A stretch of 64,000 bases of DNA from an uncultured archaeon (GCA_964373795.1 CAYJVY010000001.1:99837-163836), one strand, 5' to 3'; numbered from the stretch's first letter, positions 1,595 through 23,591 are shown. A program made the numbers and translations. The notes: generated from the sequence alone by a model not told the origin.

Positions 1595-2122
1595 ATGTTT
1601 TGGAAAAAAATTGTTTTGCTTTTTTTATTGATGTCTTTTTCGCAATTTGTTTTTGCAGGTTCATCTAAAGTTGAATTTAATTCTCTTTTAGATAAATATT
1701 TTGATTCTTCTGGAGAATTGACTCTTGAAGCAAGAAACTCTTTAAAGCAATTTAATTCTGATTTGGATAAAGTTCCGGGCGTTTTAAGGAATGCTTTTTT
1801 AGGTGAAACTATTACTTTAGAAGTTAACTTTTCTGACAATAGCACTGAATTTTTTTGTGTTAAGACAACTTCTAAAATTGAAAGCATTTCTAGAATTAAT
1901 TGTTCTAATCCTTCCTTGCTTGTTTCAATTAACGAATCTACTATTAAAGAGATTTCTTCAAGTGATAATTTTTTTGATAGTTTGGTTTCAGCTTATCTTT
2001 CTGGTGAAATAAAGGTTTCACCGGTTGGAGTTCCAGCTACTCTTAAAGTTACTTTTGTAAATATTTTTTCGGCTGTGTTTTCTTTTTTTAATTCCTTGTT
2101 TGGGAGAGTAGAGGTTAAATGA
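1595..2122 (+). CDS. Secreted or membrane-anchored hypothetical protein with N-terminal signal peptide
   Basis: The ORF track starts at GTG 1535, inside the repeat. The first ATG (MFWKKIVLLFLLMSFSQFVFAGSS) gives a classic signal peptide. Overlaps the GGPPS start by 4 bp, consistent with an operon. Confidence 0.45.
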   Translation: MFWKKIVLLFLLMSFSQFVFAGSSKVEFNSLLDKYFDSSGELTLEARNSLKQFNSDLDKVPGVLRNAFLGETITLEVNFSDNSTEFFCVKTTSKIESISRINCSNPSLLVSINESTIKEISSSDNFFDSLVSAYLSGEIKVSPVGVPATLKVTFVNIFSAVFSFFNSLFGRVEVK

Positions 2123-3192
2123 CTGAAGCAATTCAGATTTTAAAGGACTATCAGAAAAAAGTTGATGTTGAATTAATTGCTTTTTTAAATGAAAAAATTT
2201 CTGAAGCTAAAGGGCAAGATTCTTTTTCAATTGAATTGCTTAAAAGAATTAAGGAGGTAAGTGAGAAAGGCGGAGGAAAAAGAATTCGCCCTGCAATGGC
2301 TATTTTTGGTTTTAAATGTTTTGATTCTTCTACTGAAAAAGAGATTATTAAGGCATCAATTTCTTTAGAATTAATTCATACTTTTTTTTTGTTTCACGAT
2401 GACATAATGGATGAATCTGATACTAGAAGAGGATTGCCTACTTTGCATAAACAGTATGAATCCATTGCTTTAGAGTCTTTTCCTTCTTTTAATCCCAGGA
2501 GATTTGGAGAGTCAATGGCAATGCTTGGAGGAGATTTGCTTTCTTCTTTTGGTTTTGAAGCAGTTCTTAGAACTTCTTTCTCTGAAAAACAAAAACTTAC
2601 TGCTTTAAGAAAATTGAATGACATAATTTTTTTCACTTGTTTTGGGCAAATCAAAGATGTATTAAATGAAGGTAGAAAGGATTTCACTGAAGCAGATGTG
2701 TTAAATGTTCATACTTTAAAGACAGCTAAATATTCTATTGAAGGGCCTTGTCAGTTTGGAGCAATGTTTGCAAACGCTTCTCAAAAAGATTTAAAGGTTT
2801 TCACTGATTATGGAATTCCTGTTGGAATTGCCTTTCAAGTCCAAGACGATCTTTTAGGAGTGTTTGGTGATGAAAAAAAAATTGGAAAGTCTGCAGACTC
2901 TGATTTAAAGGAAGGAAAAAAAACCTTGCTTATTTTAAAGGCTTTAGAGAATGGTTCTGAAAAACAAAAAAAAGTTATTTACTCTGTTTTAGGAAACAGA
3001 AATGCTTCTCCTGAAAAAATTAATGAAGTAAGAGAAATAATTAAGGAAACTAAGAGTTTTGATTATTCTGTTAAAAAAGCTAAGGAACTACTTGAGAAAG
3101 GAAAAAAGGAAATGAAGAAATCCAAATTCAAATCCGAGGGAAAAGAGTTTTTGATTGGCATTGCTGATTACATGCTTTCAAGAGAATATTAA
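2119..3192 (+). CDS. idsA: Polyprenyl (geranylgeranyl/farnesyl) diphosphate synthase, trans-IPPS
   Basis: First aspartate-rich motif FHDDIMDESDTRRG and second aspartate-rich motif FQVQDDLLGVFGDEKKIGK are present. 357 aa. Confidence 0.8.
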   Translation: MTEAIQILKDYQKKVDVELIAFLNEKISEAKGQDSFSIELLKRIKEVSEKGGGKRIRPAMAIFGFKCFDSSTEKEIIKASISLELIHTFFLFHDDIMDESDTRRGLPTLHKQYESIALESFPSFNPRRFGESMAMLGGDLLSSFGFEAVLRTSFSEKQKLTALRKLNDIIFFTCFGQIKDVLNEGRKDFTEADVLNVHTLKTAKYSIEGPCQFGAMFANASQKDLKVFTDYGIPVGIAFQVQDDLLGVFGDEKKIGKSADSDLKEGKKTLLILKALENGSEKQKKVIYSVLGNRNASPEKINEVREIIKETKSFDYSVKKAKELLEKGKKEMKKSKFKSEGKEFLIGIADYMLSREY

Positions 3193-5834
3193 TTTTTTAC
3201 TTGTTTTTCTTTTATTGCCATTTGAGCTGCTGCGAGTTTTGCTATTGGAACCCTAAACGGACTGCAGCTAACATAATTTAATCCAATTTTGTGGCAGAAT
3301 TCAACTGAAGAAGCTTCTCCTCCGTGTTCTCCACAAATTCCTATTTCTAGTTCTGGATTTGTTTTTCTTCCAAGTTCAACACATAACTTCATTAGTTTTC
3401 CTACTCCTTCTTGATCTAATACTGCGAAAGGATCTTTTTCAAATATTTTTTTTTCCTCATAGTGTTGAACGAATTTTCCAATATCGTCTCTTGAAAACCC
3501 ATAAGTTGTTTGAGTTAAATCGTTTGTTCCAAAGGAAAAAAATTCTGCTTCTTTTGCTATTTCATCTGCTGTAATGCATGCTCTAGGCAATTCAATCATT
3601 GTTCCAATCTTGAATTTAACTCCTTTTTCTTTTAATTTTAGTTCTTCTGCGACTTTTAAAATTATTTTTTTCATTTCAGTTAATTCTTTTACTGTTCCCA
3701 CTAAAGGAATTTCGATTTCAGGTAATACCTTTATTCCTTCTTTACTTACCTCTAATGCAGCTTCTAGTGCTGCTCTTGCCTGCATTTCATATACTTCTGG
3801 ATAGCTTAGCCCTAATCTTACTCCTCTGTGGCCAAGCATTGGGTTTGTTTCTTTTAATGATTCTACTTTTGCTTTAATTATTTCTTTTTCTACATTCATT
3901 TCCTTACTCATTTCTTCTACATCTTTTTCAATAAATGGAAGAAATTCGTGTAAAGGCGGATCTAGAAATCTTATTGTTACTGGAAAGCCATTCATTTCTC
4001 TGAATAATTCTTTGAAATCATTTTTTTGTAATGGCTTGATTTTTTCTAAAGCTTTTTTTCTCCCTTCTAAGTCTTTTGCTAGAATCATTTCCCTAATTGT
4101 TTTAATCCTGTCTTCTTGAAAAAACATGTGTTCTGTTCTGCATAAACCTATTCCTTCTGCTCCAAATTCTCTTGCTTTTCTTGCATCAATTGGAGTGTCT
4201 GCATTTGCTCTTACTTTTAGTTTTCTGTATTTGTCTGCCCAATGCATTATTTCTTCAAATTCCTTGCTTAGAGTTGGATCTGTTACAGGAATTTGTCCTT
4301 TAAATATTTCTCCTGTTGCCCCGTCTAAAGTAATCCATTCACCTACTTTTATTACTTCTTGTTTTGAAGTAGTGAATTCTCCAGGATTTCCTTTAATGGA
4401 TATTTCTTCACATCCAACAATGCAGCATTTACCCATTCCTCTTGCAACAACTGCTGCATGACTTGTTAATCCTCCTCTTGAAGTTAGAATTCCTTGAGCT
4501 ACATGCATTCCTTCAATGTCATCTGGAGAGGTTTCAGCTCTAACTAAAATTATTTTTTCTCCTGGATTTTTTTCAAATAGTTCTTTTGCTTTTTCTGCGC
4601 TGAAAACAACTTTTCCTACTGCAGCTCCTGGAGAAGCAGCTAATCCTTTTGCAATTGCTTTAAATTCTTTTTTTGCTTTTTCATCTAACTGTTTATGCAG
4701 TAATTGATTTAACTGGTTTGCATTTATTTTTAGTAAGGCTTCTTTTTCTGTTAAAATTTTTTCTTTCACCATGTCTACTGCAATTTTTACTGCTGCTTTT
4801 GCAGTTCTTTTTCCATTTCTTGTTTGCAATAAATATAGCCTGTTTTCTTCAATTGTGAATTCAAAGTCTTGCAAGTCTTTGAAGTGTTTTTCTAGTTTTT
4901 CATATACTTGAATTAGTTTTTCATATGATTCTGGGAGATCTTTTTTCATTTCATCAATGTGTTTTGGAGTTCTAATTCCTGCTACTACATCTTCTCCTTG
5001 CGCGTTTAAGAGATATTCTCCGTAGTGTTCTTTTTCTCCTGTTGCAGGGTTTCGAGTGAATCCAACTCCTGTTGCACTAGAGTTTCCTTTGTTTCCGAAA
5101 ACCATTGCTTGAATATTTACAGCTGTTCCTGCATCGTCTTTTAATGAATTAATTCTTCTATAAGAAATTGCTCTAGAACTATTCCATGACTCAAAAACAG
5201 CATTAATTGTCATTCTTAATTGTTCTTCAGGGTTTTGAGGAAAACTTTTTCCTTTTGCTTTAACTAATTTCTTGTAATCTTCAACTAATTCCTTTAAATC
5301 TTGTGCACTTAAATCAGTGTCAAATTTTACTTTTCTTGCATGCTTTTTTTTTTCCAGTAACTCTTCAAAATCTGAATGACTTAACTCCATTACTACGTCT
5401 GAAAACATTTGAATAAATCTTCTATACGAATCCCATGCAACTCTTTCATTTTTTGTTTTCTCTGAAAATGCTTTAACTGATTCGTCGTTCATTCCCAGAT
5501 TTAAAACTGTATCCATCATTCCAGGCATGGAAACATAGCTTCCGCTTCTAACTGAAACAAATAAAGGGTTTTCTTTATCTCCTAATTTTTTGTTCATTTT
5601 TTTTTCTAATTCTTTTAATTTTTCTTTTACTTGTTCTTCTAATCCTTTAGGCCATTTTTTTTCTAATTCATAATATTTTTTGCATGCTTCAGTTGTAATA
5701 GTAAATCCTGGTGGAACCATTAAACCTATTGCAGTCATTTCCGCTAATTGAGCTCCTTTATTTCCTAATAGAAAAGCGCTTTCCTCGCTTGCTTTGCTTT
5801 CATTAAACGCGTATACAAGTCTTTCTTTATTCAT
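3189..5834 (-). CDS. ppdK: Pyruvate, phosphate dikinase
   Basis: 881 aa. Has an ATP-grasp N-terminal region, the phospho-histidine swivel motif GGLTSHAAVVARGMGKCCIVGC, and a PEP-utilising C-terminal TIM barrel (NDLTQTTYGFSRDD). Confidence 0.85.
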   Translation of the reverse strand: MNKERLVYAFNESKASEESAFLLGNKGAQLAEMTAIGLMVPPGFTITTEACKKYYELEKKWPKGLEEQVKEKLKELEKKMNKKLGDKENPLFVSVRSGSYVSMPGMMDTVLNLGMNDESVKAFSEKTKNERVAWDSYRRFIQMFSDVVMELSHSDFEELLEKKKHARKVKFDTDLSAQDLKELVEDYKKLVKAKGKSFPQNPEEQLRMTINAVFESWNSSRAISYRRINSLKDDAGTAVNIQAMVFGNKGNSSATGVGFTRNPATGEKEHYGEYLLNAQGEDVVAGIRTPKHIDEMKKDLPESYEKLIQVYEKLEKHFKDLQDFEFTIEENRLYLLQTRNGKRTAKAAVKIAVDMVKEKILTEKEALLKINANQLNQLLHKQLDEKAKKEFKAIAKGLAASPGAAVGKVVFSAEKAKELFEKNPGEKIILVRAETSPDDIEGMHVAQGILTSRGGLTSHAAVVARGMGKCCIVGCEEISIKGNPGEFTTSKQEVIKVGEWITLDGATGEIFKGQIPVTDPTLSKEFEEIMHWADKYRKLKVRANADTPIDARKAREFGAEGIGLCRTEHMFFQEDRIKTIREMILAKDLEGRKKALEKIKPLQKNDFKELFREMNGFPVTIRFLDPPLHEFLPFIEKDVEEMSKEMNVEKEIIKAKVESLKETNPMLGHRGVRLGLSYPEVYEMQARAALEAALEVSKEGIKVLPEIEIPLVGTVKELTEMKKIILKVAEELKLKEKGVKFKIGTMIELPRACITADEIAKEAEFFSFGTNDLTQTTYGFSRDDIGKFVQHYEEKKIFEKDPFAVLDQEGVGKLMKLCVELGRKTNPELEIGICGEHGGEASSVEFCHKIGLNYVSCSPFRVPIAKLAAAQMAIKEKQVKN

Positions 5835-6083: not shown

Positions 6084-7298
6084 GTGAAAGAATTCTCCAA
6101 TCTTTCCGATGCAGATGTCAATTTGCTTTCTTCTTTCAAACCATTAGAATTTGAAGTTGCGAACAGAATGATTGAAAATGTTGTAGGAGTAATGCCTTTT
6201 CCTCTAGGAATTGCAACCAATTTTTTAATCAATGGAAAGGATTACTTAATTCCAATGGCTTTAGAAGAAGCCTCTGTTGTTGCAGCTGCTTCTCATTCAG
6301 CAAAGCTTGCACGCGAAAAAGGAGGATTTACTGCTTCTTCAACTGATCCAATAATGATTGGACAAATTCAGTTATTGAATGTTCCAAACCTATCTAAAGC
6401 AAAAAACGCAATTGAGTCTGCGAAAAAAGAAATTTTGGAATTCTGTAATTCAATTGATTCAGTGTTAGTGAAATTTGGAGGAGGAGCAAAGGATTTCACT
6501 TTACGAGAAATTCCCTTTTCTAAAGGAAAAATGCTTGTCTTTCACTTGCTTGTAGATGTTCGAGATGCAATGGGTGCAAATGCTGTTAACACAATGTGTG
6601 AAAAGCTTTCTCCGCGTTTAGAACAGCTTTCAGGAGGAGAAACTCGTTTAAGAATTTTATCAAATCTAGCAATTTATCGTTTAACTAAAGCAAAAGCTAT
6701 TTGGAGTAAAAAAATTTTAACAGAGCAATTCGGTGAACAAGCAGTTGACAGAATTTTAGATGCATTTGAATTTGCTGTAAACGATCAATTTCGTGCAACA
6801 ACTCATAACAAAGGAATAATGAATGGAATTGATGCAGTAGTAATTGCTACAGGAAATGACTTCAGAGCAGTTGAAGCTGGAGCACATTCCTATGCTGCTT
6901 TTGAGCATAATTATTCTTCTCTAACAAAATATTACAAAAATTCTGATGGAGACTTGGTTGGAGAAATTGAATTACCTTTAGCAATTGGTTTAATTGGTGG
7001 AGCAACTAAAGTGCATCCAATGGCTCAAGTTTCATTAAAAATTTTGGGAGTAAAAACAGCTAATGAATTAAGTCAAGTAATTGCTTCTGTTGGCCTTGCG
7101 CAAAACTTTGCTGCAATGCGTGCATTGGCAATTGAAGGAATTCAGCAAGGCCATATGAAGCTTCATTCCAGAAACCTTGCTTCAATGGCTGGAGCAAAAG
7201 GAAATCAAATAGATTTAATTGCAGCTCAAATGGTGAAAGAAAAAAACGTTTCATTTTCCAGGGCAAAAGAATTAATTGAAGGATTGCAAAAACACTAA
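6084..7298 (+). CDS. hmgA: Hydroxymethylglutaryl-CoA reductase (class I, archaeal-type)
   Basis: 404 aa with motifs EASVVAAASHSAKLAR, DAMGANAVN and GTVGG-like region. GTG start as called by the ORF track; no in-frame ATG upstream. Confidence 0.85.
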   Translation: MKEFSNLSDADVNLLSSFKPLEFEVANRMIENVVGVMPFPLGIATNFLINGKDYLIPMALEEASVVAAASHSAKLAREKGGFTASSTDPIMIGQIQLLNVPNLSKAKNAIESAKKEILEFCNSIDSVLVKFGGGAKDFTLREIPFSKGKMLVFHLLVDVRDAMGANAVNTMCEKLSPRLEQLSGGETRLRILSNLAIYRLTKAKAIWSKKILTEQFGEQAVDRILDAFEFAVNDQFRATTHNKGIMNGIDAVVIATGNDFRAVEAGAHSYAAFEHNYSSLTKYYKNSDGDLVGEIELPLAIGLIGGATKVHPMAQVSLKILGVKTANELSQVIASVGLAQNFAAMRALAIEGIQQGHMKLHSRNLASMAGAKGNQIDLIAAQMVKEKNVSFSRAKELIEGLQKH

Positions 7299-7537: not shown

Positions 7538-8581
7538 ATGATTACTGGAATTGTTGGTTACGGAGCTTATATTCCGCAGTATAGAATTAAGGCTGAAACA
7601 ATTGCCGAGGTATGGGGAACTGATCCTAAAACAATTATTAATGGCTTGCTTATTCAAGAAAAAAGTGTTCCAGGAAAAGATGAAGACACTATTTCAATTT
7701 CAGTTCAAGCAGCTCGAAATGCTTTAACTCGCGCGCAAATAGATCCTCAAAAAATTGGAGCAATTTTTATTGGCTCTGAAAGCCATCCTTATGCAGTAAA
7801 GCCTTCTGCTTCAATTGTTGGAGATGCATTAAATGCTGGGCCAGATTTAATGATGGCTGACACAGAGTTTGCTTGCAAGGCTGGAACAGCTGCAATTCAA
7901 ATGGTTTACGGTTTAGTGAAATCTGAAACAATTGAATATGGTTTAGCAATTGGAGCTGATACTTCTCAAGCCTCTCCAAATAATGCTTTAGAATACTCTG
8001 CTTCTGCTGGAGGAGCAGCATTTATTTTAGGAAGACAAAAAAAAGAAGTCCTCGCTTCCTTGGATTCAACTTATTCTTTTGCAACTGATACCCCTGATTT
8101 TTGGAGAAGAGGTTTAGCTTCTTTTCCTTCTCATGCAGGCAGATTCACTGGAGAACCAGGTTATTTCAAGCACTTGGAAGCAGCTGCTAAAAAAATAATG
8201 GATTTAAATGGCTTTAAGCCTTCAGATTTTGATTTTGTTTCCTTTCATCAACCAAATGGAAAATTTCCTTTAACTGCTGCAAAAAATTTAGGTTTTAATT
8301 CAGAACAATTAAAAACCGCTTTGCTTGTAACAAGAATTGGGAACACTTACTCTGGAGCATCTCCTTTAGGTTTAACAGCAATTCTTGACATTGCAAAGCC
8401 TGGGCAAAAAATTCTTGTAACCTCTTATGGATCTGGTTCTGGAGCAGATGCATTTATTTTTACTGTAACAGATGTCTTACCTTCAAAACAAGGTTTAGCA
8501 AAAAAAACAGAAGACTATATTGCTAGAAAAAAATATTTATCTTACACTAAATACAGACAACACATGGAGCTCATCCACTAA
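7538..8581 (+). CDS. HMG-CoA synthase (archaeal type)
   Basis: 347 aa. N-terminus MITGIVGYGAYIPQYRI is typical of archaeal HMGCS, with a thiolase-fold condensing-enzyme architecture. Confidence 0.85.
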   Translation: MITGIVGYGAYIPQYRIKAETIAEVWGTDPKTIINGLLIQEKSVPGKDEDTISISVQAARNALTRAQIDPQKIGAIFIGSESHPYAVKPSASIVGDALNAGPDLMMADTEFACKAGTAAIQMVYGLVKSETIEYGLAIGADTSQASPNNALEYSASAGGAAFILGRQKKEVLASLDSTYSFATDTPDFWRRGLASFPSHAGRFTGEPGYFKHLEAAAKKIMDLNGFKPSDFDFVSFHQPNGKFPLTAAKNLGFNSEQLKTALLVTRIGNTYSGASPLGLTAILDIAKPGQKILVTSYGSGSGADAFIFTVTDVLPSKQGLAKKTEDYIARKKYLSYTKYRQHMELIH

Positions 8582-8694: not shown

Positions 8695-9852
8695 ATGAAA
8701 GTAGCAGTTGTTGGAACTGGTTTAACTCAATTTGGAGAGTTATGGAATAAAGGCATTAAAGATTTGCTTGCTGAAGCTCAGTTAAAAGCTTTAGAGGATG
8801 CAAAAATGTCTGGAAAAGATATTCAAATGATATATACAGGTAACATGGTTTCAGGAGAATTAACTGGTCAAGAACATTTAGGAGCAATGGCTTCAGAGAA
8901 TTTAGGATTAAATATTCCTTCAACTCGAATTGAAGGAGCATGTGCTTCAGGTAGCTTAGCAATTCGAGAAGGAGTTTTTGCAATTCTTTCAGGGCAAGCA
9001 GATATTGTAATGGTTAATGGAGTAGAAAAAATGACTGATTGTTCTGTTGAACAAGTTACAACTGCTTTAATGGGTGCAGGTGATGAAGAATGGGAGGAAT
9101 TTCAAGGAGCAACTTTTCCAGGGCTTTATGCTTTATTTGCGAGAAGAATGTTTCATGAAAAATTAATTACTCGCGAACAACTTGCAATGGTTTCAGTTAA
9201 ATCTCACAAGCATGGAACCTTAAACCCTATTGCTCAATTCAAAAAAGAAATCACTGTAGACGATGTATTAAAGTCTTCAATGGTTGCAGATCCTTTAACC
9301 TTGCTTGATTGTTCTCCAATCTCTGACGGAGCTGCTTCAATTATTCTTGCAAAACCAGAACTAGCAAAAAAATTCACTGATTCGCCTGTTTACTTAATTG
9401 GTTCAGGGCAAGCAACTGATACTCTTGCATTGCATGCAAGAGATTCTTTAACTGAAATTAAAGGCACTCGAATAGCTGCTCAGCATGCTTTCAAGCAAGC
9501 AGGAATTTCAGTAAAAGATATTTCTATTACTGAAGTGCATGACTGTTTTTCTATTGCAGAGGTTTTAGCAATGGAGGGCATTGGCTTAACAAAGCCTGGA
9601 GAAACAGGGAAAGTAATTGAAGAAGGTCAAACATTTTTTGATGCAAAAATTCCAGTGAACACTTGTGGTGGATTAAAAGCTTGTGGGCACCCAATCGGAG
9701 CTACAGGAGTAAAACAAGCAATTGAAGTGGTTCATCAATTAAGAGGCGATGCAGGAAAAAGGCAAGTAAAAAATGCTTCAATTGGCATAACACATAATGT
9801 TGGAGGTACTGGAGCAACAGTAGTAGTAAATGTGTTTTCAAATAAAAGGTGA
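8695..9852 (+). CDS. Acetoacetyl-CoA thiolase (archaeal thiolase)
   Basis: 385 aa. MKVAVVGTGLTQFGELW N-terminus, catalytic Cys region EGACASGSLA, C-terminal CGGLKACGHPIGATG. Confidence 0.85.
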   Translation: MKVAVVGTGLTQFGELWNKGIKDLLAEAQLKALEDAKMSGKDIQMIYTGNMVSGELTGQEHLGAMASENLGLNIPSTRIEGACASGSLAIREGVFAILSGQADIVMVNGVEKMTDCSVEQVTTALMGAGDEEWEEFQGATFPGLYALFARRMFHEKLITREQLAMVSVKSHKHGTLNPIAQFKKEITVDDVLKSSMVADPLTLLDCSPISDGAASIILAKPELAKKFTDSPVYLIGSGQATDTLALHARDSLTEIKGTRIAAQHAFKQAGISVKDISITEVHDCFSIAEVLAMEGIGLTKPGETGKVIEEGQTFFDAKIPVNTCGGLKACGHPIGATGVKQAIEVVHQLRGDAGKRQVKNASIGITHNVGGTGATVVVNVFSNKR

Positions 9853-9857
9853 AATGA

Positions 9858-10256
9858 ATGTATCGTTCAAGTCCAATTATTCGATGGAGAAGATATAACG
9901 ATAGATATCGCTTTGAAGGAAATCAATGCATTAAGTGTCAAACAGTTTTTTATCCAAAAAAATTTTTATGCAAATGTGGTTCAAAAGAATTCAACGCATT
10001 TGAGTTTTCAGGAAAAGGAGTCCTTCTTTCTTTTACTGAAATAAAGTCTCCTCCAGAGGTTTTCATTGAACAAGCCACCTACTGCATTGGAATAGTTCAA
10101 TTAATTGAAGGCCCTAAAATTACTTCCCAAATTGCTGATGTAGAATTAAAAGACTTAAAAATTGGAATGAAATTAATTTCTTCTTTCAGAAAATTTTATT
10201 CCTCTGGAGAAGAAGGAGCAATTCATTATGGAACAAAATTCATTCCAGATTTCTAA
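9858..10256 (+). CDS. DUF35 OB-fold/zinc-ribbon scaffold protein of the thiolase-HMGCS complex
   Basis: 132 aa with C-x2-C...C-x-C ribbon (CIKCQTVFYPKKFLCKCGS). Invariant position after thiolase. Confidence 0.75.
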   Translation: MYRSSPIIRWRRYNDRYRFEGNQCIKCQTVFYPKKFLCKCGSKEFNAFEFSGKGVLLSFTEIKSPPEVFIEQATYCIGIVQLIEGPKITSQIADVELKDLKIGMKLISSFRKFYSSGEEGAIHYGTKFIPDF

Positions 10257-10267
10257 TTACAAGAAAC

Positions 10268-10675
10268 TTATTTTCCTTTTTTTTCCTGAAGAAACTTTTC
10301 TGCTTTAATTATTCTACTAAAATTTTCAAGAATTTTTGCAGTAATTTCGGTTTTTTCTTCATCCATTGATATGAATTGAACCCTTAATGAAAATCTATAC
10401 ACTTCTTCATCAATTTTATCTAATAACTCTTTACTTCCAAGTCTTTCAAGCCTACCTGTTTTATTTCCTTGTTGCAATAAAAATGCTTTAACTAATGCTC
10501 TTTCTTGTGCATTGCTTGAAGTTATTCCGGCAATTATTTGCGCTAAATTTGTTCGAGTTTTATCTGCAAACTTAATATGTTCAATTGTTCCACGTGTATG
10601 CGGATTTTTATCCATTCTTTCAAATTCTTTTACAAGTATTTTTCTATGAATATCTGGGTTTAAAGGTTTTCGCAT
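10268..10675 (-). CDS. Hypothetical protein, possibly alpha-helical DNA/RNA-binding
   Basis: 135-aa ORF with no recognised motif. Confidence 0.4.
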   Translation of the reverse strand: MRKPLNPDIHRKILVKEFERMDKNPHTRGTIEHIKFADKTRTNLAQIIAGITSSNAQERALVKAFLLQQGNKTGRLERLGSKELLDKIDEEVYRFSLRVQFISMDEEKTEITAKILENFSRIIKAEKFLQEKKGK

Positions 10676-10783
10676 AACTTTCTATAAATAATTGTTTTTA
10701 AGGTTTTTATATCTTTAACCTTGTGCTTTAAAACAATTTTCAACCATATTTTTTTAATTAAATTTTTATTAAGAGGTGTTGAA

Positions 10784-11212
10784 ATGCCTAAAAGAAATGA
10801 AGCCTTTTTTTGCTTATATGAAAACTTTTTCTTAGAATTAAAAAAATCTCTTGGAAGAAAAGGAGTGAAACTTTGGCAAAAAGTAATGTTTAATGCTTTA
10901 ATGAATGCCTTCAAATTCGATGGCGCGCGAAAAAAATCCGGAATAAATTCCTTCATTAAATTTGTTGGCAAACGAGATAACAAGCTTGGATTGAAAGTTT
11001 CATTCAAAAAAACTCGTAACGGATTTATTTACAGGTTTGCTGTAGACCCTTTTCCTGGCTTGAAAGGGAAAACCTCTATTCAAACCATTACCGAATCATA
11101 TTTAAATCCCAAAAAAGAATATTTTTTAGGAAGCAAGTGGAGATTTAAAACTTCAAAGCATTTCTGGAAAGGAGATAACTTAATTGAACACGTTTTTTGG
11201 AGAGAGAATTAA
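10784..11212 (+). CDS. Hypothetical basic, aromatic-rich protein. First gene of a translationally coupled pair.
   Basis: ORF track 10721..11212. An internal ATG (MPKRNEAFF) is preferred. The stop overlaps the start of the next ORF (TAAATG). An antisense ORF 10660..11007 competes with it. Confidence 0.35.
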   Translation: MPKRNEAFFCLYENFFLELKKSLGRKGVKLWQKVMFNALMNAFKFDGARKKSGINSFIKFVGKRDNKLGLKVSFKKTRNGFIYRFAVDPFPGLKGKTSIQTITESYLNPKKEYFLGSKWRFKTSKHFWKGDNLIEHVFWREN

Positions 11213-17134: not shown

Positions 17135-17881
17135 ATGAATCACAAATTGTTTGAGGATATTGGTTTAACCTCTGGAGAAGTAAAAGTTTATTTTGCTTTA
17201 TTGAAGTTAGGCGCCACTAAAACAGGAGCGCTAGCTATAAATGCAGGGGTTTCTTCTTCAAAGGTTTACAAAATTCTTTCAAGGCTTGAAAAAAAAGGGC
17301 TTGCAGGGCATATTCTTAAAGGTAAAATAAAATACTTTAGCGCTAATGCTCCTAAAAGAATTCTTGATTATGTGGATGAAAAAGAATCTATTTTGCAGGA
17401 AAAAAAAGCTTTAATTGAGGAGTTACTGCCAGAATTAGAAAAACAAAAATTGTCTAGTAAAACTGAGGCAACAATTTATGAAGGCTTTAAGGGAGTTACA
17501 AATTTTTTCAAAAACATTTTGCACGAACTCAAAACAGGCGAAACTTATTATGTTATTGGCGCTGGATATGGAGATGATATTCTTGAATTGCGCGAATTTT
17601 TTTATAGTCATCATGCTAAAAGAGCTAAAAGAAAGATTAAAGTGAAAATGTTGGCAAATCATAATGTTAAAGACTCATTGGTTTCTACAAGTAAAAAAAA
17701 TTCTGAGATAAGATTTTTGCCTCAATATTTGATCACTAATATGGAGATTGTTTTCTATAAAAACAAGGTTTTCATTGCTTTATTAACTCATGAACCAATT
17801 GGTTTCTTGATTGAAAGCGAGGAAGCAGTTAAAAGCTTTCAATCCTATTTCAATGCTTTTTGGAAAATAGCTAAAAAATAA
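17135..17881 (+). CDS. TrmB-family transcriptional regulator
   Basis: N-terminal wHTH LTSGEVKVYFALLKLGATKTGALAINAGVSSSKVYKILSRLEKKGL plus C-terminal TrmB-like domain. Confidence 0.65.
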   Translation: MNHKLFEDIGLTSGEVKVYFALLKLGATKTGALAINAGVSSSKVYKILSRLEKKGLAGHILKGKIKYFSANAPKRILDYVDEKESILQEKKALIEELLPELEKQKLSSKTEATIYEGFKGVTNFFKNILHELKTGETYYVIGAGYGDDILELREFFYSHHAKRAKRKIKVKMLANHNVKDSLVSTSKKNSEIRFLPQYLITNMEIVFYKNKVFIALLTHEPIGFLIESEEAVKSFQSYFNAFWKIAKK

Positions 17882-17940
17882 AAAGCAATTAATTTGCTTT
17901 CATCAAGCTATTTAATTCTTTTTCTTGGTTTAATTATTTA

Positions 17941-18591
17941 ATGACTTCGACTTTAGTTTACCTTGTAAGACATGCAGAAACTGATTGGAATGTTTTGAAA
18001 AAACTTCAAGGGCAAACAAATGAACAAAATTTAACTCTATTAGGATTAAAGCAAGCAGAGTGTTTGAAAAAATTTTTTGAGGAAAACCCTGTTGACTTGA
18101 TTTTTTCTAGTCCAATGAAGAGGGCAATGGATTCAGTGAAAATTGTTTTTCCTGGCAAAAGAGTTTTCACTGATCATAGATTAATTGAACGAGGTTTTGG
18201 AGAATTTGAAGGAAAAACATGGCAAGAAATTGAAGCAATTCGTCCTGGATTACATGCATTGTATAAAGATACTAGAACATTGCCCGAAGTAAAAGGAGCT
18301 GAAACAATTGAAGAACTTCAAAACAGGTCAGTTGAAGCCTTGCAAGACATAATTAAAATTGGAGAAGGAAAGAAAATTGCAGTAATTGTTCATGGAGCAA
18401 CAATTAAAACAATTTTGTTAAAAATCTTAAATAAGCCTTTTACTTTCTATAAAGAAATTCCTCAAAAAAACGGCTGCATTAATTTGTTAGAGTTTTCAAG
18501 TAAAAATTTTAGTTCAGGAAAAATTTTAATTCAAGGAGATTTAAGTCATTTACAAATTTTGTCTGAAAAAGATTTTGATTTAAAGAGGTGA
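17941..18591 (+). CDS. Histidine phosphatase family protein (phosphoglycerate-mutase-like)
   Basis: LVRHAETDWN catalytic His motif. Confidence 0.65.
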   Translation: MTSTLVYLVRHAETDWNVLKKLQGQTNEQNLTLLGLKQAECLKKFFEENPVDLIFSSPMKRAMDSVKIVFPGKRVFTDHRLIERGFGEFEGKTWQEIEAIRPGLHALYKDTRTLPEVKGAETIEELQNRSVEALQDIIKIGEGKKIAVIVHGATIKTILLKILNKPFTFYKEIPQKNGCINLLEFSSKNFSSGKILIQGDLSHLQILSEKDFDLKR

Positions 18592-18595
18592 TTGT

Positions 18596-19600
18596 TTGAC
18601 TTCCAAAATTTTAAAAGCAACAGCTTTGGCTAATGCAAATATTGCTTTAACAAAGTATTGGGGGAAAAGAGATAAAGCATTAATTCTGCCAATGAACGGT
18701 TCAACCTCGGTTTCATTAAATCATTTAAACACTATTACAACAGTGGAGTTTTCTGAAAAATTTAAAGAAGACTTTATTACTTTAAACGATGAAGAATTAA
18801 AAAAAGATGCAGCAGATATTGTAAAACATTTAGATCTTATTCGTGAAATGGCTGGAATAAAATTTAAAGCCAAAATGATTTCAACCTCTAATTTTCCAAT
18901 TGCAGCTGGCTTGGCTTCAAGTGCTTCTGGTTTTGCAGCTCTTTCTTTAGCTGCTTCAAAAGCAGCTGGCTTGGAGTTAAATGAAAAAGAATTATCCATT
19001 CTCGCTCGCCGAGGAAGCGGTTCCGCTTCCAGATCTATTCCAGGAGGATTTGTTGAATGGAAAAAAGGTGAACAAGCAGATGGTTTAGATAGTTTTGCTT
19101 ATTCTTTTGCTTCAAAAGATTATTGGCCTGAATTTAGAATGCTTACAACAATTTTAACTGAAGCTAAAAAGAAATGGAGTTCTAGATCTGGAATGGCTCA
19201 AACAGTTGCTTCTTGCAAGCTTTACAAGGGATGGCTTGACTCAGTTCAAGAAGACATTGAAGGATTAAAAAAAGCGGTTTTGCAAAAAGATTTTCAAACA
19301 GTTGGAGAAATAGCTGAAATGAATTGCTTGAAAATGCATGCAACAATGATTTCTACTAATCCTCCAATAATTTATTGGCAGCCTGCAACTATTTCAGTAA
19401 TTCATTCAGTTCTTTCTTGGCGCGATCAAGGCCAAAAATGTTTTTTTACTATAGATGGCGGTCCAAACGTTAAAGTAATTTGTTTAGCGCAAGACGCAAA
19501 ACACTTGACAAAAGAGTTGCTCGCAGTAGAAGGAGTAAAAAAAGTAATTGAATGCTCTCCAGGAGACAAAGCTCAACTCATTGAAAAACACTTGTTTTAG
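18596..19600 (+). CDS. Diphosphomevalonate decarboxylase family enzyme (MVD, phosphomevalonate or bisphosphomevalonate decarboxylase)
   Basis: 334 aa, GHMP fold, N-terminal ANANIALTKYWGKRD typical of MVD-family proteins. Substrate specificity not assignable by eye. Confidence 0.75.
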   Translation: MTSKILKATALANANIALTKYWGKRDKALILPMNGSTSVSLNHLNTITTVEFSEKFKEDFITLNDEELKKDAADIVKHLDLIREMAGIKFKAKMISTSNFPIAAGLASSASGFAALSLAASKAAGLELNEKELSILARRGSGSASRSIPGGFVEWKKGEQADGLDSFAYSFASKDYWPEFRMLTTILTEAKKKWSSRSGMAQTVASCKLYKGWLDSVQEDIEGLKKAVLQKDFQTVGEIAEMNCLKMHATMISTNPPIIYWQPATISVIHSVLSWRDQGQKCFFTIDGGPNVKVICLAQDAKHLTKELLAVEGVKKVIECSPGDKAQLIEKHLF

Positions 19601-19777: not shown

Positions 19778-20719
19778 ATGTTAATTGAATTAGGAATTTT
19801 AGTTCTTGCATTAATTGTTTTAGCTAAGTCTTCTGAAATAGTTATTGATGCAAGCATTAAGATTTCAGAGTACCTGAATATTTCCCAGCTTGCAATTGGA
19901 TTTATTGTAATTGCAGTAGCTGTTTCAATGCCTGACTTTGTTGTATCTATTACTGCTTCTCTTCAACAAAAACCTGCTCTTGCCATAGGAGATGCTTTGG
20001 GGAGCAGCATTGCAAATATTTGCCTTGTATTAGGAATTGCTACTTTTATTAGAAAAATCGATGTTGAAAGAAAGCATACTTTAGAATCAGCTGAACTGCT
20101 TTTATTAATTTCAATTATTCCTTTAGTTGTTTTAAGTAAAGCAATTGTTGGAACCTTTGAAGGAATAATTTTACTGCTTACTTTTGTTTTGTATGTTTTT
20201 TTTGTAGTGAAAAGCAAGTTTTCCTTAAAAATTAAAGACGGAGTAACTCATAAAGATTTCATTAAACTTTTACTGTTTTTCGCGTTTGGATTAATTATTG
20301 TAATTGTTTCCGCACAATTTGTTGTAGGCTCTGCAATTGATTTGGCTAAACTTTTGAAAATAAATGAAGCAGTAATTGGTTTAATTGTATTATCTTTTGG
20401 CACTACTTTACCTGAACTAGCAATTGATTTCACTGCAATTAGAAGAGGACAAGTAGCCTTAGCAATAGGGGATGTTTTAGGAAGCACTGTAACAAATCTA
20501 ACCTTAATTCTTGGAACAGTTTTAATTATTTCTCCAACAGTAATTGATTTTGCTTTTTACTCTTTACCTTTAGCTTTCATTGTAATAGCTAATTCTTTTC
20601 TAGTATACAATTTATACAAGCACCAATACCTTGGAAAAAAACAAGGACTAGCATTTTTGCTTTTATATGTTTTATTTATTTTTTCAACTCTATTGTTTTC
20701 CGTTCGCCCTGCAATTTAA
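19778..20719 (+). CDS. Ca2+/cation antiporter (CaCA family, YrbG-like)
   Basis: Two alpha-repeat motifs, GDALGSSIANI and GDVLGSTVTNL, and 10 hydrophobic segments. Confidence 0.7.
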   Translation: MLIELGILVLALIVLAKSSEIVIDASIKISEYLNISQLAIGFIVIAVAVSMPDFVVSITASLQQKPALAIGDALGSSIANICLVLGIATFIRKIDVERKHTLESAELLLLISIIPLVVLSKAIVGTFEGIILLLTFVLYVFFVVKSKFSLKIKDGVTHKDFIKLLLFFAFGLIIVIVSAQFVVGSAIDLAKLLKINEAVIGLIVLSFGTTLPELAIDFTAIRRGQVALAIGDVLGSTVTNLTLILGTVLIISPTVIDFAFYSLPLAFIVIANSFLVYNLYKHQYLGKKQGLAFLLLYVLFIFSTLLFSVRPAI

Positions 20720-20762
20720 AAAATTTTCTCACACAATATATTTGCTTTTTTGAGGTGAAAAA

Positions 20763-21911
20763 ATGAAGGAATTAACTGTTTCTGCTCCAGGAAAACTAAT
20801 GCTTTCAGGAGAATGGAGTGTTCTTGAGCTAGGAGTTCCTTGTGTTGTAATGGCTATTGATAAAAGAGTTTACGCGAAAATTCATTCAACCTCAGATAAT
20901 AAAATTGTTTTAAATGCTCTAGACGTTGGTTTAAGCAATATCTCTGGATACTTTGATTTAAGTTCAAAAAAACTTTTATTTGAAAAAGAATTATCCAAAG
21001 AAGAATTAGATAAAGTTGTGTTCATTAAAAATGCTATTGAATTAAGTTTGGCTTTTTTGCAAGACAAAAAAGTTTCATTGAAAGGATTTTCATTAGAAAC
21101 TAAAAGTGATGATGCTCAAGTAAAACTTGAAGATGGCTCTGTAAAAAAAATTGGTTTTGGAAGCTCTGCGGCTGTATGCGTTGCAGTTTCAGGAGCTGTG
21201 TTTGCTTTACATGAACAAGAATTTAATTCTTATTCGTCTAAAGAAATTATTTTCAAGATTTCAGCTTTGGCTCATTTCACTGCTCAAGGAAAACTTGGAA
21301 GCTCTTTTGATATAGCTGCTTCTTCTTTTGGAGGAGTTCTTTTATATAAAAAATTTGACCCAGAATGGGTTGTAACTGAATTTAACAAAGGCAAACCAGT
21401 GCATGAATTAATGCTTGAAAAATGGCCTTATTTAGAAATTCGTTCTTTAAAGCTTCCAACAGATTTCAATTTATGTGTTGGTTGGACTAAGTCTAGTGCT
21501 TCAACTAAAGAATTAGTTTCAAAAGTGAACGAGTTTAAAAAAAATAATAAAGATAATTACATGCAAATAATAAAAAAAATTGAAGGTGTTACTTCAAAAT
21601 TAATTTCAGAACTTGAATCAAGCAATAAATTAACTGTTTTACAGTTATTACGCGAAAACAGGAAATACTTAAAAGAATTCAGTGATTTAACTCAAAACAA
21701 TTTAGAAACCCCTGAATTAAAGACTTTAGCTGATACAGCTGACTTGCTTGGAGCTGCAGGAAAGTTTTCCGGAGCAGGAGGAGGAGACTGCGGAATTGCA
21801 GTAACATTTTCAAACGAAGCAGCGCACAAAATTCAAAACGCTTGGAAAGAAAAAGGCTTATATCCATTAAACGTAAAAATAGCACAGCAAGGTTTGAGGT
21901 TGGAACACTAA
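20763..21911 (+). CDS. Phosphomevalonate kinase-like GHMP kinase (ERG8-type)
   Basis: VSAPGKLMLSGEWSVLE N-terminus resembles ERG8-type PMK rather than MVK. GHMP P-loop region GFGSSAAV. 382 aa. Confidence 0.6.
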   Translation: MKELTVSAPGKLMLSGEWSVLELGVPCVVMAIDKRVYAKIHSTSDNKIVLNALDVGLSNISGYFDLSSKKLLFEKELSKEELDKVVFIKNAIELSLAFLQDKKVSLKGFSLETKSDDAQVKLEDGSVKKIGFGSSAAVCVAVSGAVFALHEQEFNSYSSKEIIFKISALAHFTAQGKLGSSFDIAASSFGGVLLYKKFDPEWVVTEFNKGKPVHELMLEKWPYLEIRSLKLPTDFNLCVGWTKSSASTKELVSKVNEFKKNNKDNYMQIIKKIEGVTSKLISELESSNKLTVLQLLRENRKYLKEFSDLTQNNLETPELKTLADTADLLGAAGKFSGAGGGDCGIAVTFSNEAAHKIQNAWKEKGLYPLNVKIAQQGLRLEH

Positions 21912-22543
21912 ATTATTTTTTTTTGTTCAAGTATTTCTAAATCTTTTTTAAAAGCAGGGGTAAAATTTCCCTTATTCATATTTTTAATTTCTTGCAAGGA
22001 ATAAAATCCTGCCTCTTCTATTTCTTCTTTATCTAATTTGAATGATCCTTCATGAATTGTTTTAAACAAGTAAACAAATTGTAAATGGATTGGATCTTCA
22101 ACTCTAAATTTTGCAATGAATTTAATTTTTTTAAATTTTATGCCAATTTCTTCTTCAGCTTCCTTTAAAGCAGTTTTTTTAGGAGTATCTCCTAAGCTAA
22201 TATGTCCTGCAGTAGAACATGTAAATTTTCCAGGATGAGTATCAATTAATTTACTTCTTTTTTGTAAAAAAATTTCGGTTTTTGAATTAAACACAATTAA
22301 ATGAATTACCTTACAATAAACTCCTAATTTATTATGAATTTTTGCTGAGACTGTTAAAACCTTTTTCTCTTTTTCGTTAACTAATTCAAGTAACTCTATT
22401 TTTCCTTTTTTGAATTCTGTTTCTTCTTCTCTGTTTAATAAAACTAGTTCTGGCTTTAATTCTAGGACTTTTTCCTTTGATTTAATCTCTTCCCAGAAAA
22501 CAATTTTTTTAAAATCCATTTCAATAAAACACTGTTTACTCAT
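21908..22543 (-). CDS. Nudix hydrolase with about 100-aa N-terminal extension
   Basis: Nudix box GHISLGDTPKKTALKEAEEEIGI (G-x5-D-x7-KE-x2-EE-x-GI). The ORF track extends to 22615, but an internal ATG (MSKQCF...) avoids overlap with the IDI-2 start. Confidence 0.6.
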   Translation of the reverse strand: MSKQCFIEMDFKKIVFWEEIKSKEKVLELKPELVLLNREEETEFKKGKIELLELVNEKEKKVLTVSAKIHNKLGVYCKVIHLIVFNSKTEIFLQKRSKLIDTHPGKFTCSTAGHISLGDTPKKTALKEAEEEIGIKFKKIKFIAKFRVEDPIHLQFVYLFKTIHEGSFKLDKEEIEEAGFYSLQEIKNMNKGNFTPAFKKDLEILEQKKII

Positions 22544-22556
22544 TAATTTAAATTTA

Positions 22557-23591
22557 ATGGATATAAATTTAATAATGCCTGGAGAGGATACTTCTGCAAG
22601 AAAAATGCAGCACATTAAAATTGCATTGCAACCTGATTTAAGTCAGTTTCAATCAATTTCAACTGGCTTGGAAAAAATTCAATTAAATTACAACGCCTTG
22701 CCCGAAATTGATTTAAGCGAGGTTTCCATTGAAACAACTTTTTTAGGAAAAAAATTTTCAGCTCCACTTTATGTTAGTGGAATGACTGGCGGCTGTAAAC
22801 CAGCTGAAAAAATTAATAAAGATATTGCAAGGGCTTGTGAAGAACTCGGATTAGGAATGGGTGTTGGCTCGCAAAGAGCAATGCTTGAAGACCCTTCTTT
22901 AACTGAAACCTATGTTGTAAGAGATGTTGCTCCTTCAATTTTTTTAGCCGGAAACCTCGGAGCAGTACAATTAAAGAATTATTCTCTTGAAAGAATAGAG
23001 GAAATGATTAACTCAATTAAAGCAGATGCTTTGGCAATTCATTTAAATCCTGCTCAAGAAGCAGTTCAACCTGAAGGTACAACAAATTTTTCCAATATAT
23101 TATCATTAATTGACAAAGCTTCAAGAAAGCTTTCCAAACCTGTTTACGTTAAAGAAGTTGGAAACGGCATTTCAAGAGAAGTAGCTGAAAAGCTTTCTAA
23201 AACAAATATTCAAGCATTAGATGTTGGAGGAGCAGGAGGCACTTCTTGGACTAGAATTGATTATTTACGTAACAAGAAAAACAAGTTTGGGCCGTTCGCG
23301 GAATTCGGAATTCCAACAAAAGATTCTTTAGAACAAGTTAGAGAAGTTTTCTCTAAACCAATTATTGCTACTGGCGGAATTAGAACTGGCTTAGATGTAG
23401 TGAAATGCTTGTCTTTAGGGGCTTCTTTGTGTGGAATGGCTTTTCCTGTTTTAAAAGCCCAAGACAAAGCAGGATTTGAAGGGGTGAAAGAATTCTTGGA
23501 AAAAACAATGACTGAAATAAAGATTGGACTTTTCTTAGTTGGAGCAAAAAATATTTCTGAATTAAGAAAATTAAAGCCAATAAACTATTAA
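22557..23591 (+). CDS. fni: Isopentenyl-diphosphate delta-isomerase, type 2 (FMN-dependent)
   Basis: TIM-barrel IDI-2 features: GMTGG, AIHLNPAQE, GGAGGTSW, ATGGIRTGLDV. The ORF track starts at 22410. An internal ATG at 22557/22575 is preferred because the 5' extension is antisense to the Nudix gene. Confidence 0.8.
   Translation: MDINLIMPGEDTSARKMQHIKIALQPDLSQFQSISTGLEKIQLNYNALPEIDLSEVSIETTFLGKKFSAPLYVSGMTGGCKPAEKINKDIARACEELGLGMGVGSQRAMLEDPSLTETYVVRDVAPSIFLAGNLGAVQLKNYSLERIEEMINSIKADALAIHLNPAQEAVQPEGTTNFSNILSLIDKASRKLSKPVYVKEVGNGISREVAEKLSKTNIQALDVGGAGGTSWTRIDYLRNKKNKFGPFAEFGIPTKDSLEQVREVFSKPIIATGGIRTGLDVVKCLSLGASLCGMAFPVLKAQDKAGFEGVKEFLEKTMTEIKIGLFLVGAKNISELRKLKPINY

Follow-up and report, generated by a model that had tools for sequence, protein, structure and literature searches.

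We analysed a 64-kb stretch of DNA, given as one strand, from an uncultured archaeon (GCA_964373795.1, CAYJVY010000001.1:99837-163836; hereafter the window), and examined the region at 2119-23591, where an earlier note made from the sequence alone had described a complete mevalonate pathway clustered with a prenyl synthase. Using open reading frame (ORF) listings, Pfam scans and curated NCBIfam models with bit-score cut-offs, we find every gene that it had named, at or close to where it had placed them: 3-hydroxy-3-methylglutaryl-CoA (HMG-CoA) reductase (HMGR), HMG-CoA synthase (HMGS) with a thiolase and a DUF35 protein, mevalonate kinase (MVK), phosphomevalonate kinase (PMK), a decarboxylase of the diphosphomevalonate decarboxylase family (MDD or MVD; DMD or DPMD in other papers), a type-2 isopentenyl-diphosphate isomerase (IDI-2) and a trans-prenyl synthase (Table 1). 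The models for MVK (170 bits against a cut-off of 163), PMK (249 against 166) and MDD (314 against 171) are all passed, and these three genes lie within 9 kb of one another.

Table 1. Features of the mevalonate region, with positions counted from the first nucleotide of the window; paired figures are bit scores against model cut-offs.
Feature	Position	Strand	Evidence
Short-chain trans-prenyl diphosphate synthase (GGPPS/IdsA-like)	2119..3192	+	PF00348, 210 bits
Pyruvate phosphate dikinase (PPDK)	3189..5834	-	Pfam PPDK_N, PEP-utilizers, PEP-utilizers_C
HMG-CoA reductase, class II	6084..7298	+	PF00368, 369 bits; TIGR00532, 439 vs 260
Archaeal-type HMG-CoA synthase	7538..8581	+	NF003274, 523 vs 244; TIGR00748, 515 vs 353
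Acetoacetyl-CoA thiolase (archaeal thiolase-domain protein)	8695..9852	+	NF004720, 539 vs 420
DUF35/ChsH2 OB-fold and zinc-ribbon protein	9858..10256	+	PF01796, PF12172
Conserved 142-residue protein, predicted Bet3/V4R/H-NOX-like fold	10784..11212	+	AlphaFold2 (AF2) and Foldseek
Mevalonate kinase (MVK), atypical clade	12028..13029	+	TIGR00549, 170.4 vs 163.05 (narrow margin)
HAD-IIA phosphatase, directly downstream of MVK	13090..13887	+	Pfam Hydrolase_6, Hydrolase_like; TIGR01460, 127 vs 100
TrmB-family transcription regulator	17135..17881	+	PF01978
Histidine phosphatase (His_Phos_1, CobC/PGM-like)	17941..18591	+	PF00300, 149 bits
Diphosphomevalonate decarboxylase (MDD/MVD)	18596..19600	+ (TTG start)	TIGR01240, 314 vs 171
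Na+/Ca2+ exchanger family membrane protein	19778..20719	+	PF01699
GHMP-type phosphomevalonate kinase (PMK), 382 residues	20763..21911	+	TIGR01220, 249 vs 166
YfcD-like Nudix protein	21908..22543	-	PF00293; best PDB match E. coli YfcD (2fkb)
Type-2 (FMN) isopentenyl-diphosphate isomerase (IDI-2), 344 residues	22557..23591	+	TIGR02151, 388 vs 281

The contig is archaeal. It carries genes for DTD2, PolD (DP1 and DP2), the proteasome, FttA/aCPSF1, NAC and RpoB, and its GC content is uniform at ~0.28-0.33 across the window (~30%). The closest named relatives of its PMK are from Candidatus Diapherotrites (76% identity), followed by metagenome-assembled genomes (MAGs) of Aenigmarchaeota and Nanoarchaeota. 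A PMK scan of GTDB representative genomes, from which we kept 80 PMK-centred loci as our synteny sample (cited below, like loci from metagenomes, by L numbers), gave a top match among the loci kept of 49% identity, the genome of the window itself not being one of them, and its best loci belong to Ca. Forterrea, Ca. Iainarchaeum and archaeon GW2011_AR10. From the informational genes and the PMK relatives together, we conclude that the host is a DPANN archaeon, most likely a member of the Iainarchaeota (Diapherotrites). Rfam and tRNA scans of the window returned no match and hence no RNA marker for taxonomy.

The upper part of the pathway is of archaeal type. HMGS, thiolase and DUF35 form an adjacent archaeal trio that is complete in the window and keeps its order in related loci, with the DUF35 gene directly following the thiolase gene in 17 of them; the thiolase scores 537 on the equivalog model NF053570, under its cut-off of 600. 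Thiolase, HMGS and DUF35 proteins reportedly form a complex in other archaea, and by analogy the DUF35 protein of the window is the predicted scaffold of such a complex. The reductase belongs to class II, as class I models give only 55-73 bits (TIGR00533, 73 against a cut-off of 442). At the other end of the pathway, the FARM motif of the prenyl synthase, DDIMD, lies at residue 94 and is preceded by Phe at -5 and -4, an arrangement typical of short-chain enzymes, and a DDLLG motif is also present. The label geranylgeranyl diphosphate (GGPP) synthase given by the earlier note is a reasonable guess: PF00348 marks the protein as a trans-prenyl synthase, but it falls below all NCBIfam equivalog cut-offs (IdsA, 225 against 468; GGPP_syn, 213 against 500), and its product length is a prediction from sequence.

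For the lower pathway, we considered the kinase encoded at 20763, which had been described as an ERG8-like PMK and which carries the motif SAPGKLMLSGEWSVLE at residues 7-22. That it is a PMK of the GHMP family agrees with its score on TIGR01220, but neither the ERG8 branch (117 bits against 377) nor the Sulfolobales branch (NF040957, 97 against 500) is indicated by the sub-models. Its nearest solved structures are also PMKs, namely those of Listeria (3k17, 168 bits) and Streptococcus pneumoniae (1k47/3gon, 84 bits), while MVKs reach only ~41 bits. It therefore does not group with mevalonate 3-kinases or another GHMP clade, an outcome that would have spoken against a classical pathway. A homolog search gave 1771 proteins, with named PMKs in MAGs of Diapherotrites, Aenigmarchaeota and Nanoarchaeota, and the GHMP motifs are invariant in an alignment of 27 DPANN homologs. 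Homologs of ~40% identity are found in bacteria of the candidate phyla radiation (CPR) and in Heimdall-/Hodarchaeota. By these sequence comparisons we place the 20763 protein, a predicted PMK, within the GHMP/ERG8 family on its bacterial, Gram-positive branch.

The decarboxylase encoded at 18596 belongs to the MVD family, as had been proposed, but TIGR01240 also matches the phosphomevalonate decarboxylases (PMDs) of Chloroflexi and so cannot separate MDD from PMD. Moreover, the best structural matches of the protein are two entries from Anaerolinea thermophila (6n0z, 273 bits; 6n0x, 268 bits), which represent the only PMD structure (Aoki et al. 2022), ahead of the MDD of Staphylococcus epidermidis (248 bits). 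These matches would fit a pathway of the Haloarchaea/Chloroflexi type, in which the MVD-family enzyme is a PMD that makes isopentenyl phosphate, an isopentenyl phosphate kinase (IPK) encoded elsewhere finishes the route and the PMK-like kinase does something else. An IPK gene could lie outside the window, and one relative (L008) does have such a gene near MVK-MVD-PMK. We consider this pathway very unlikely, because the substrate pocket is that of an MDD. We compared ten positions (18, 21, 27, 139, 141, 144, 192, 193, 196 and 283 in S. epidermidis numbering), taking them from HMMER alignments to PDB entries and from 65 PMK-linked homologs aligned with the protein by MAFFT. The window protein reads Y-K-I-S-S-R-S-R-M-D (Y21, K24, I30, S141, S143, R146, S196, R197, M200 and D287 in its own numbering) and is identical to S. 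epidermidis MDD at all ten, whereas wild-type A. thermophila PMD reads Y-N-R-S-S-R-S-T-H-D. Four positions discriminate between the two, with Lys24, Ile30, Arg197 and Met200 in the window protein in place of Asn, Arg, Thr and His; the residues expected of a PMD at three of these (a residue other than Lys, Arg or Thr, and His, respectively; N, R and H in the wild-type enzyme) are replaced by K, I and M. The structural ranking has a simple explanation in the same residues: 6n0z differs from the wild-type entry 6n0x exactly by N to K and H to M, both already present in the window protein, and it scores highest because of this match.

Published rules point in the same direction. Table 4 of Dellas 2013 (PMC3857490) gives Tyr18, Lys21, Ser139, Ser141 and Ser192 for MDDs, in S. 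epidermidis numbering, and Leu, Met or Tyr for Lys21 together with Arg at position 27 for PMDs; Zhu et al. 2024 (PMC11052028) take a conserved Lys to mark DMD and a conserved His to mark PMD. The window protein follows the MDD pattern in both. Furthermore, its score on the PMD model NF040704 is only 181 against a cut-off of 475, and 62 of the 65 PMK-linked MVD homologs have K, S, R, M and D in the places equivalent to Lys21, Ser192, Arg193, Met196 and Asp283. Finally, a PMK that passes its model is linked to MVD in 66 of the 80 related loci, whereas organisms with PMD are described as being without PMK (Dellas 2013, PMC3857490). A Thermoplasma-type assignment, with the MVD-family protein as a mevalonate 3-kinase or a mevalonate 3,5-bisphosphate decarboxylase, can be put aside as extremely improbable. 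These enzymes belong to the same superfamily, and homologs are reported in some DPANN archaea (Micrarchaeota, Aenigmatarchaeota), but the bisphosphate decarboxylase model NF040847 gives 52 bits against 560 and the 3-kinase model NF040848 gives 26 against 440. The window protein has the catalytic Asp (D287) that is absent from mevalonate 3-kinase and retains both the Ser-Arg loop and the Lys employed with ATP and with the diphosphate, and genes for a 5-kinase and a PMK are both in the cluster. By every sequence criterion available, we identify the 18596 protein as a putative diphosphomevalonate decarboxylase.

The mevalonate kinase departs further from the textbook enzyme. Its nearest solved structures are those of Methanosarcina mazei and other (archaeal) MVKs (111 bits). 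Compared with the M. mazei enzyme, motif I reads APGN for APGK, motif II reads SGMSSS for SGLGSS and the catalytic Asp is replaced by Glu (ASGSEI), so that the canonical Lys/Asp pair is replaced by Asn11 and Glu157. By motif, we take these positions to correspond to Lys13 and Asp204 of rat MVK, both of which have been reported as essential for catalysis. The substitution is shared by a clade. Among the PMK-adjacent MVKs of the genome loci, six have Asn/Glu (L014, L016, L019, L024, L048 and L075) and the rest have Lys/Asp. A metagenome scan seeded with the clade (L082-L123) added ~45 members, for ~50 sequences overall, all with Asn and Glu; the search pattern partly selected for Asn but did not select for Glu.

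The gene neighborhoods of this clade fall on two sides. In 12 loci the Asn/Glu kinase adjoins MVD and/or PMK, among them that of the closest relative (L082, 68% identity), which has the order thiolase-DUF35-MVK-MVD-PMK. In at least 12 further loci, from metagenomes, the Asn/Glu kinase lies beside UbiD, UbiX, the large and small subunits of AcnX, and IPK. Since both routes require mevalonate 5-phosphate, a mevalonate 5-kinase is the common denominator of these contexts. As far as sequence can settle the matter, the window protein would serve as mevalonate kinase, though as an atypical member of its family, and it is above all this kinase that holds the remaining biochemical uncertainty. Two loci (L083 and L103) have an Asn/Glu kinase in tandem with a Lys/Asp kinase, perhaps because one is replacing the other or because the two differ in function. 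We also observed two tandem MVK-like paralogs, both Lys/Asp, between DUF35 and MVD in some Iainarchaeota loci (L045, 6268-8300; L042; L067).

We next turn to the genes of the alternative routes. The earlier note saw no IPK in the window, and this holds: none of the ORFs of at least 110 residues in the 64 kb matches the AA_kinase, AcnX or UbiD/UbiX families, and tblastn with M. jannaschii IPK (an approximate query sequence) finds nothing in the window. With the same query, IPKs do turn up elsewhere (L008 and nine metagenome loci), and the same Pfam approach recognises AcnX, UbiD and UbiX in other loci. Two sets of candidates were rejected as IPKs. The 256-residue ORF at 11213-11983 (+) has no AA_kinase match, is Lys/Arg-rich with a low-complexity look and has no homolog in any locus; it also has a coiled-coil look. 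The AA_kinase genes near MVD in Aenigmatarchaeota loci are UMP-kinase-like (TIGR02076, 136 bits, against 49 on the IPK model).

Because the decarboxylase has MDD residues, the kinase passes the curated PMK model and the 64 kb hold no gene of an IPK or dehydratase route, the classical sequence of MVK, PMK and MDD is the best reading of the lower pathway. Two outcomes that the earlier note had named as speaking against it, PMD-type residues in the 18596 protein and a place in another GHMP clade for the 20763 protein, were looked for and not seen. We are therefore confident, though short of certain, that this region is where a DPANN archaeon clusters its isoprenoid-precursor genes and that it encodes a complete classical, eukaryote-type mevalonate pathway. 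Of the options left open by the earlier note, the classical lower pathway is thus the one that gains support and an undescribed variant the one that does not, while its comparison with Sulfolobales is apt for the chemistry and fails for the type of PMK. We propose that an archaeal thiolase/HMGS/DUF35 complex would convert acetyl-CoA to HMG-CoA, which class II HMGR would reduce to mevalonate. MVK would then form mevalonate 5-phosphate and the GHMP-type PMK mevalonate 5-diphosphate, after which MDD would phosphorylate C3 and decarboxylate the product to isopentenyl diphosphate (IPP). The FMN-dependent IDI-2 would equilibrate IPP with dimethylallyl diphosphate (DMAPP), and the short-chain prenyl synthase would extend them, probably to GGPP, for archaeal lipids. 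The activities and substrate preferences in this scheme, and any co-transcription of the genes, are predictions drawn from the gene identities, active-site residues and gene order that we observe. In composition the cluster is a mosaic: its upper pathway is archaeal, its MVK belongs to a divergent clade, and MVD and PMK form a bacterial-like pair.

Several points weigh against a complete classical pathway. Having Asn11 and Glu157 in place of the canonical pair, the MVK is assigned by its family membership and its gene context. Insertions, including a 2.5-kb ABC transporter on the opposite strand, separate the lower-pathway genes, which therefore do not form one operon. Hoshino & Gaucher 2018 (PMC6107057) scored Diapherotrites mostly with MVK and IPK and largely without PMK or DPMD; that scoring covers few genomes and conflicts with two loci of our sample (L045 and L028). 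Our view is limited to 64 kb, and an IPK or an archaeal-type route could be encoded elsewhere in the genome. In a Nanoarchaeota MAG (L008), an IPK-like gene at 4496-5263 lies 2.7 kb upstream of MVK-MVD-PMK and encodes a protein 33% identical to M. jannaschii IPK (E = 5e-36), which suggests that IPK and the classical genes can coexist in DPANN archaea. Hodarchaeales are likewise reported with both routes, the two gene sets being on one contig (Zhu 2024, PMC11052028).

These last observations bear on a further possibility, that the genome has AcnX, UbiD/UbiX and IPK outside the window, with MVK shared between them and the genes described here, so that the classical route is one of two. We regard this as unlikely, although less so than the other alternatives. 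In its favor, besides the Hodarchaeales report, are the at least 12 metagenome loci in which the MVK clade of the window clusters with the genes of the archaeal route, and one metagenome locus (L091, 287-6921) that combines an Asn/Glu MVK with IPK, a PMD-like decarboxylase and further archaeal-route-like ORFs. On the other side, AcnX, UbiD/UbiX and IPK are all absent from the window, the compact PMK-centred genome loci show no such families in neighbor clustering, with the IPK search matching L008 only, and the closest MVK relative (L082) has the classical arrangement. An IPK elsewhere in the genome would not contradict a classical pathway; plants and Sulfolobales have both. As for L091 itself, its decarboxylase scores 175 bits on the MvaD model, above its MDD score, and the further ORFs cluster with the UbiD and AcnX-large families. 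Two routes side by side from mevalonate phosphate to isopentenyl phosphate may be encoded in this locus.

Gene order in other genomes places the cluster of the window in context. Within 10 kb of PMK we find MVD in 66 and MVK in 63 of the 80 loci. The array HMGR-HMGS-thiolase-DUF35-MVK-MVD-PMK, sometimes followed by IDI2, lies within the fetched stretch of ten loci (L003, L005, L015, L028 from the closed AR10 genome, L030, L044, L045 from Ca. Iainarchaeum andersonii, L055, L072 and L081), and compact DPANN loci such as L003, L005, L026 and L070 have the order MVK-MDD-PMK-IDI2. The clustering described by the earlier note is thus borne out and is not due to chance, since many related genomes have these genes linked and identically ordered. 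From HMGR to PMK, the array spans ~8-10 kb in relatives (for example, L003 and L028), whereas in the window, which keeps the order, inserted genes have lengthened it to 17.5 kb. These are three ORFs in the interval from DUF35 to MVK; the HAD phosphatase, an acylphosphatase, the opposite-strand ABC transporter, the TrmB protein and the histidine phosphatase between MVK and MVD; and the Na+/Ca2+ exchanger between MVD and PMK. Clustering is therefore a trait of the lineage, and the window holds a loosened, expanded copy of a compact array.

The repeated layout also speaks to the origin of the bacterial-like genes. Given that PMK and MVD are of bacterial type and that CPR bacteria carry homologs of ~40% identity (L027, L031 and L050), they could in principle come from a bacterial contaminant, for example of the CPR, joined to archaeal DNA during assembly or binning. 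Such an artefact has a negligible probability in our view. An independently assembled Logan contig covers this DNA over 13.7 kb (acylphosphatase gene to DTD2 inclusive) with identical gene content, and GC is uniform over the window. MVD and PMK are flanked by archaeal HMGS/thiolase/DUF35 on one side and archaeal DTD2, PolD and RpoB on the other, and the same combination of archaeal and bacterial-type genes recurs in many DPANN genomes, the closed AR10 chromosome included.

Beyond the pathway enzymes, the cluster contains several genes with conserved positions in relatives. The first example is the Nudix gene, which is convergent with PMK (4-nt overlap) and encodes a protein with a near-complete Nudix box, GHISLGDTPKKTALKEAEEEIGI. 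We considered and rejected it as a type-1 isomerase (IDI-1). By comparison with an E. coli IDI sequence that served as an approximate query, Cys67 and Glu116 of IDI-1 are replaced by Ala and Gln, and H25, H32 and E114 by Asn, Cys and His; the catalytic Cys and Glu are thus absent, and the IDI-1 model NF002995 gives 41 bits against 127. Genuine IDI-1 genes are separate in nine related loci, and the two that were scanned score 164-170 and match at all 8 positions. The protein thus appears to be a relative of IDI-1 and not IDI-1 itself. Of the 80 PMK loci, 21 have YfcD-like Nudix homologs, in most cases between MVD and either MVK or PMK, and since they co-occur with IDI-2 or a genuine IDI-1, they are not simply the isomerase. 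In two loci the Nudix domain is fused to the N-terminus of PMK in a single 539-residue ORF (L045 of Ca. Iainarchaeum andersonii, 9279-10895; L042, 5986-7602). Word-index homolog searches returned only 2-3 matches with the Nudix protein, and equally few with the 142-residue protein described below. A single search of the literature did not reveal the Nudix accessory gene. Far outside the cluster, at 59678-60385 (+), there is another Nudix hydrolase gene, which is unrelated to this one. For the neighboring IDI-2 gene, we rejected a TTG start at 22410, which would carry the ORF too far, into the convergent Nudix gene; in the independent Logan assembly the gene is called from 22557.

In a second example, the histidine phosphatase gene lies immediately upstream of MVD. 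Its stop codon (TGA, 18589-18591) is spanned by a Shine-Dalgarno-like AGAGGTGA at 18584-18591, and the TTG start of MVD follows at 18596 after a 4-nt gap, so that the two genes are apparently translationally coupled. Homologs occur directly upstream of PMK or MVD in L010, L021 and L064, and no NCBIfam equivalog cut-off was reached. TrmB homologs are found directly upstream of PMK in L016, L024 and L099, loci that also carry the Asn/Glu kinase, and the TrmB protein is a possible regulator of the lower-pathway genes. A third example is the 142-residue protein, which has no Pfam, NCBIfam or PDB sequence match, a PDB profile search with its family being also empty. Its AF2 model has a mean pLDDT of 97.4, and Foldseek matches it best to Bet3/TRAPPC3, H-NOX and phenol-sensor domains, folds that we take to belong to a V4R-like superfamily of hydrophobic-ligand binders. 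The family is rare (54 representatives among 1.84 billion proteins), with homologs beside MVD in L051, L054, L078 and L080 and after DUF35 in L079, and its only large fusion partner (in P0132), an ankyrin-type repeat region by eye, is uninformative. With the fold resting on a model, we propose that the protein is a candidate accessory gene of DPANN mevalonate clusters.

It is conceivable, if rather doubtful at present, that these genes form an undescribed accessory layer of DPANN mevalonate clusters that senses, trims or recycles phosphorylated isoprenoid intermediates, the MVK dyad having been rebuilt alongside as Asn/Glu. In such a layer, the YfcD-like Nudix protein would serve as diphosphatase for IPP/DMAPP or mevalonate diphosphate. 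The other candidate members are the histidine phosphatase, positioned for translational coupling to MVD, the Bet3/V4R-fold protein, with a hydrophobic compound as its presumed ligand, and a regulator of the TrmB family.

Among other neighbors of the pathway genes, PPDK, also upstream of HMGR in L015 and L044, is a conserved neighbor of the cluster and not a pathway enzyme. A homolog of the HAD phosphatase is in the cluster of one genome locus only (L070), and the Na+/Ca2+ exchanger, found between MVD and PMK in no related locus, is probably unrelated to the pathway. Family searches gave no match for the ORFs at 10268-10675 (-), 11213-11983 (+), within 125-2122 and at 23729-24856 (-). Those at 10268 (a candidate gene), 11213, 125 and 1535 have no homolog among the fetched loci, and for the one at 23729 the only matches, in L003 and L005, are weak. 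Many apparently conserved short ORFs in related loci were discarded as antisense shadows of PMK, MVD or MVK. Elsewhere in the window, we observed inteins in the FttA/aCPSF1 gene (55663-58974), where it includes a LAGLIDADG endonuclease, and in the RpoB gene (60911-63916), and an IS605-type OrfB/TnpB gene (Cas12f-like TNB domain) adjoining an AbiEi/AbiEii toxin-antitoxin pair (39125-41888).

How does the cluster compare with known systems? Its combination of genes is not new, as PMK with MDD in DPANN, Asgard archaea and Sulfolobales has already been described. In Zhu et al. 2024 (PMC11052028), PMK and DMD are reported from several DPANN MAGs, Asgard archaea and Sulfolobales, and the supplements to that paper consist of genome lists without per-genome gene presence. 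Hoshino & Gaucher 2018 (PMC6107057) report MVK, PMVK and DPMD in a few Micrarchaeota and class II HMGR in DPANN. The eukaryote-type pathway of DPANN and Asgard archaea thus outlined shares with the window PMK and DMD together with MVK, class II HMGR and IDI-2, as well as a DMD with the conserved Lys and not the His of PMD, and PMK and DMD sequences interleaved with those of bacteria and CPR. It differs in that the 2018 survey had Diapherotrites largely without the two lower-pathway enzymes, and the Asn/Glu MVK clade was not found in the examined passages of these studies of mevalonate pathway evolution. The PMK homologs in CPR bacteria and Heimdall-/Hodarchaeota, together with a gene order said to equal that of Gram-positive operons, fit the repeated transfers proposed by Zhu 2024 (PMC11052028).

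Other systems are more distant. Like the host of the window, Sulfolobales are archaea reported to use MVK, PMK and DMD (Nishimura et al. 2013). They differ from it in the type of PMK, as given above by NF040957, and in their decarboxylase, that of S. solfataricus giving 178 bits against 246-274 for the bacterial enzymes that match the window MDD. To our knowledge, the mevalonate genes of Sulfolobales are not clustered in this way. Gram-positive cocci (Staphylococcus, Streptococcus and Enterococcus) reportedly have the operon order mvaK1-mvaD-mvaK2-fni, which is the MVK-MDD-PMK-IDI2 order of the compact DPANN loci. They also resemble the window in having class II HMGR, in a PMK that passes TIGR01220 and in an MDD identical at the ten pocket positions. 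Unlike them, the window has an archaeal host, an upper pathway of archaeal HMGS, thiolase and DUF35, another MVK clade and unrelated insertions. With the route of Chloroflexi and haloarchaea (MVK, PMD and IPK; Dellas 2013, PMC3857490), the window shares a decarboxylase that is about equally similar to Anaerolinea PMD and to bacterial MDDs; it differs in its MDD-type pocket, in having PMK and in the lack of IPK in the window.

Many DPANN archaea have no lipid biosynthesis of their own and probably acquire lipids from hosts. A full route from acetyl-CoA to IPP, together with a prenyl synthase, would mean that this lineage can at least make its own isoprenoid precursors, and this bears on host dependence. 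The mosaic also provides a data point on the eukaryote-type pathway's origin and its movement between bacteria, DPANN and Asgard archaea, in that its upper pathway is archaeal, its MVK comes from a clade that is elsewhere tied to the archaeal-type route, and its MVD-PMK pair is bacterial-like and stands in what is said to be the Gram-positive order. Lastly, the Asn/Glu MVK, the fusion of Nudix with PMK and the Bet3-fold neighbor could reveal new regulation of isoprenoid precursor pools.

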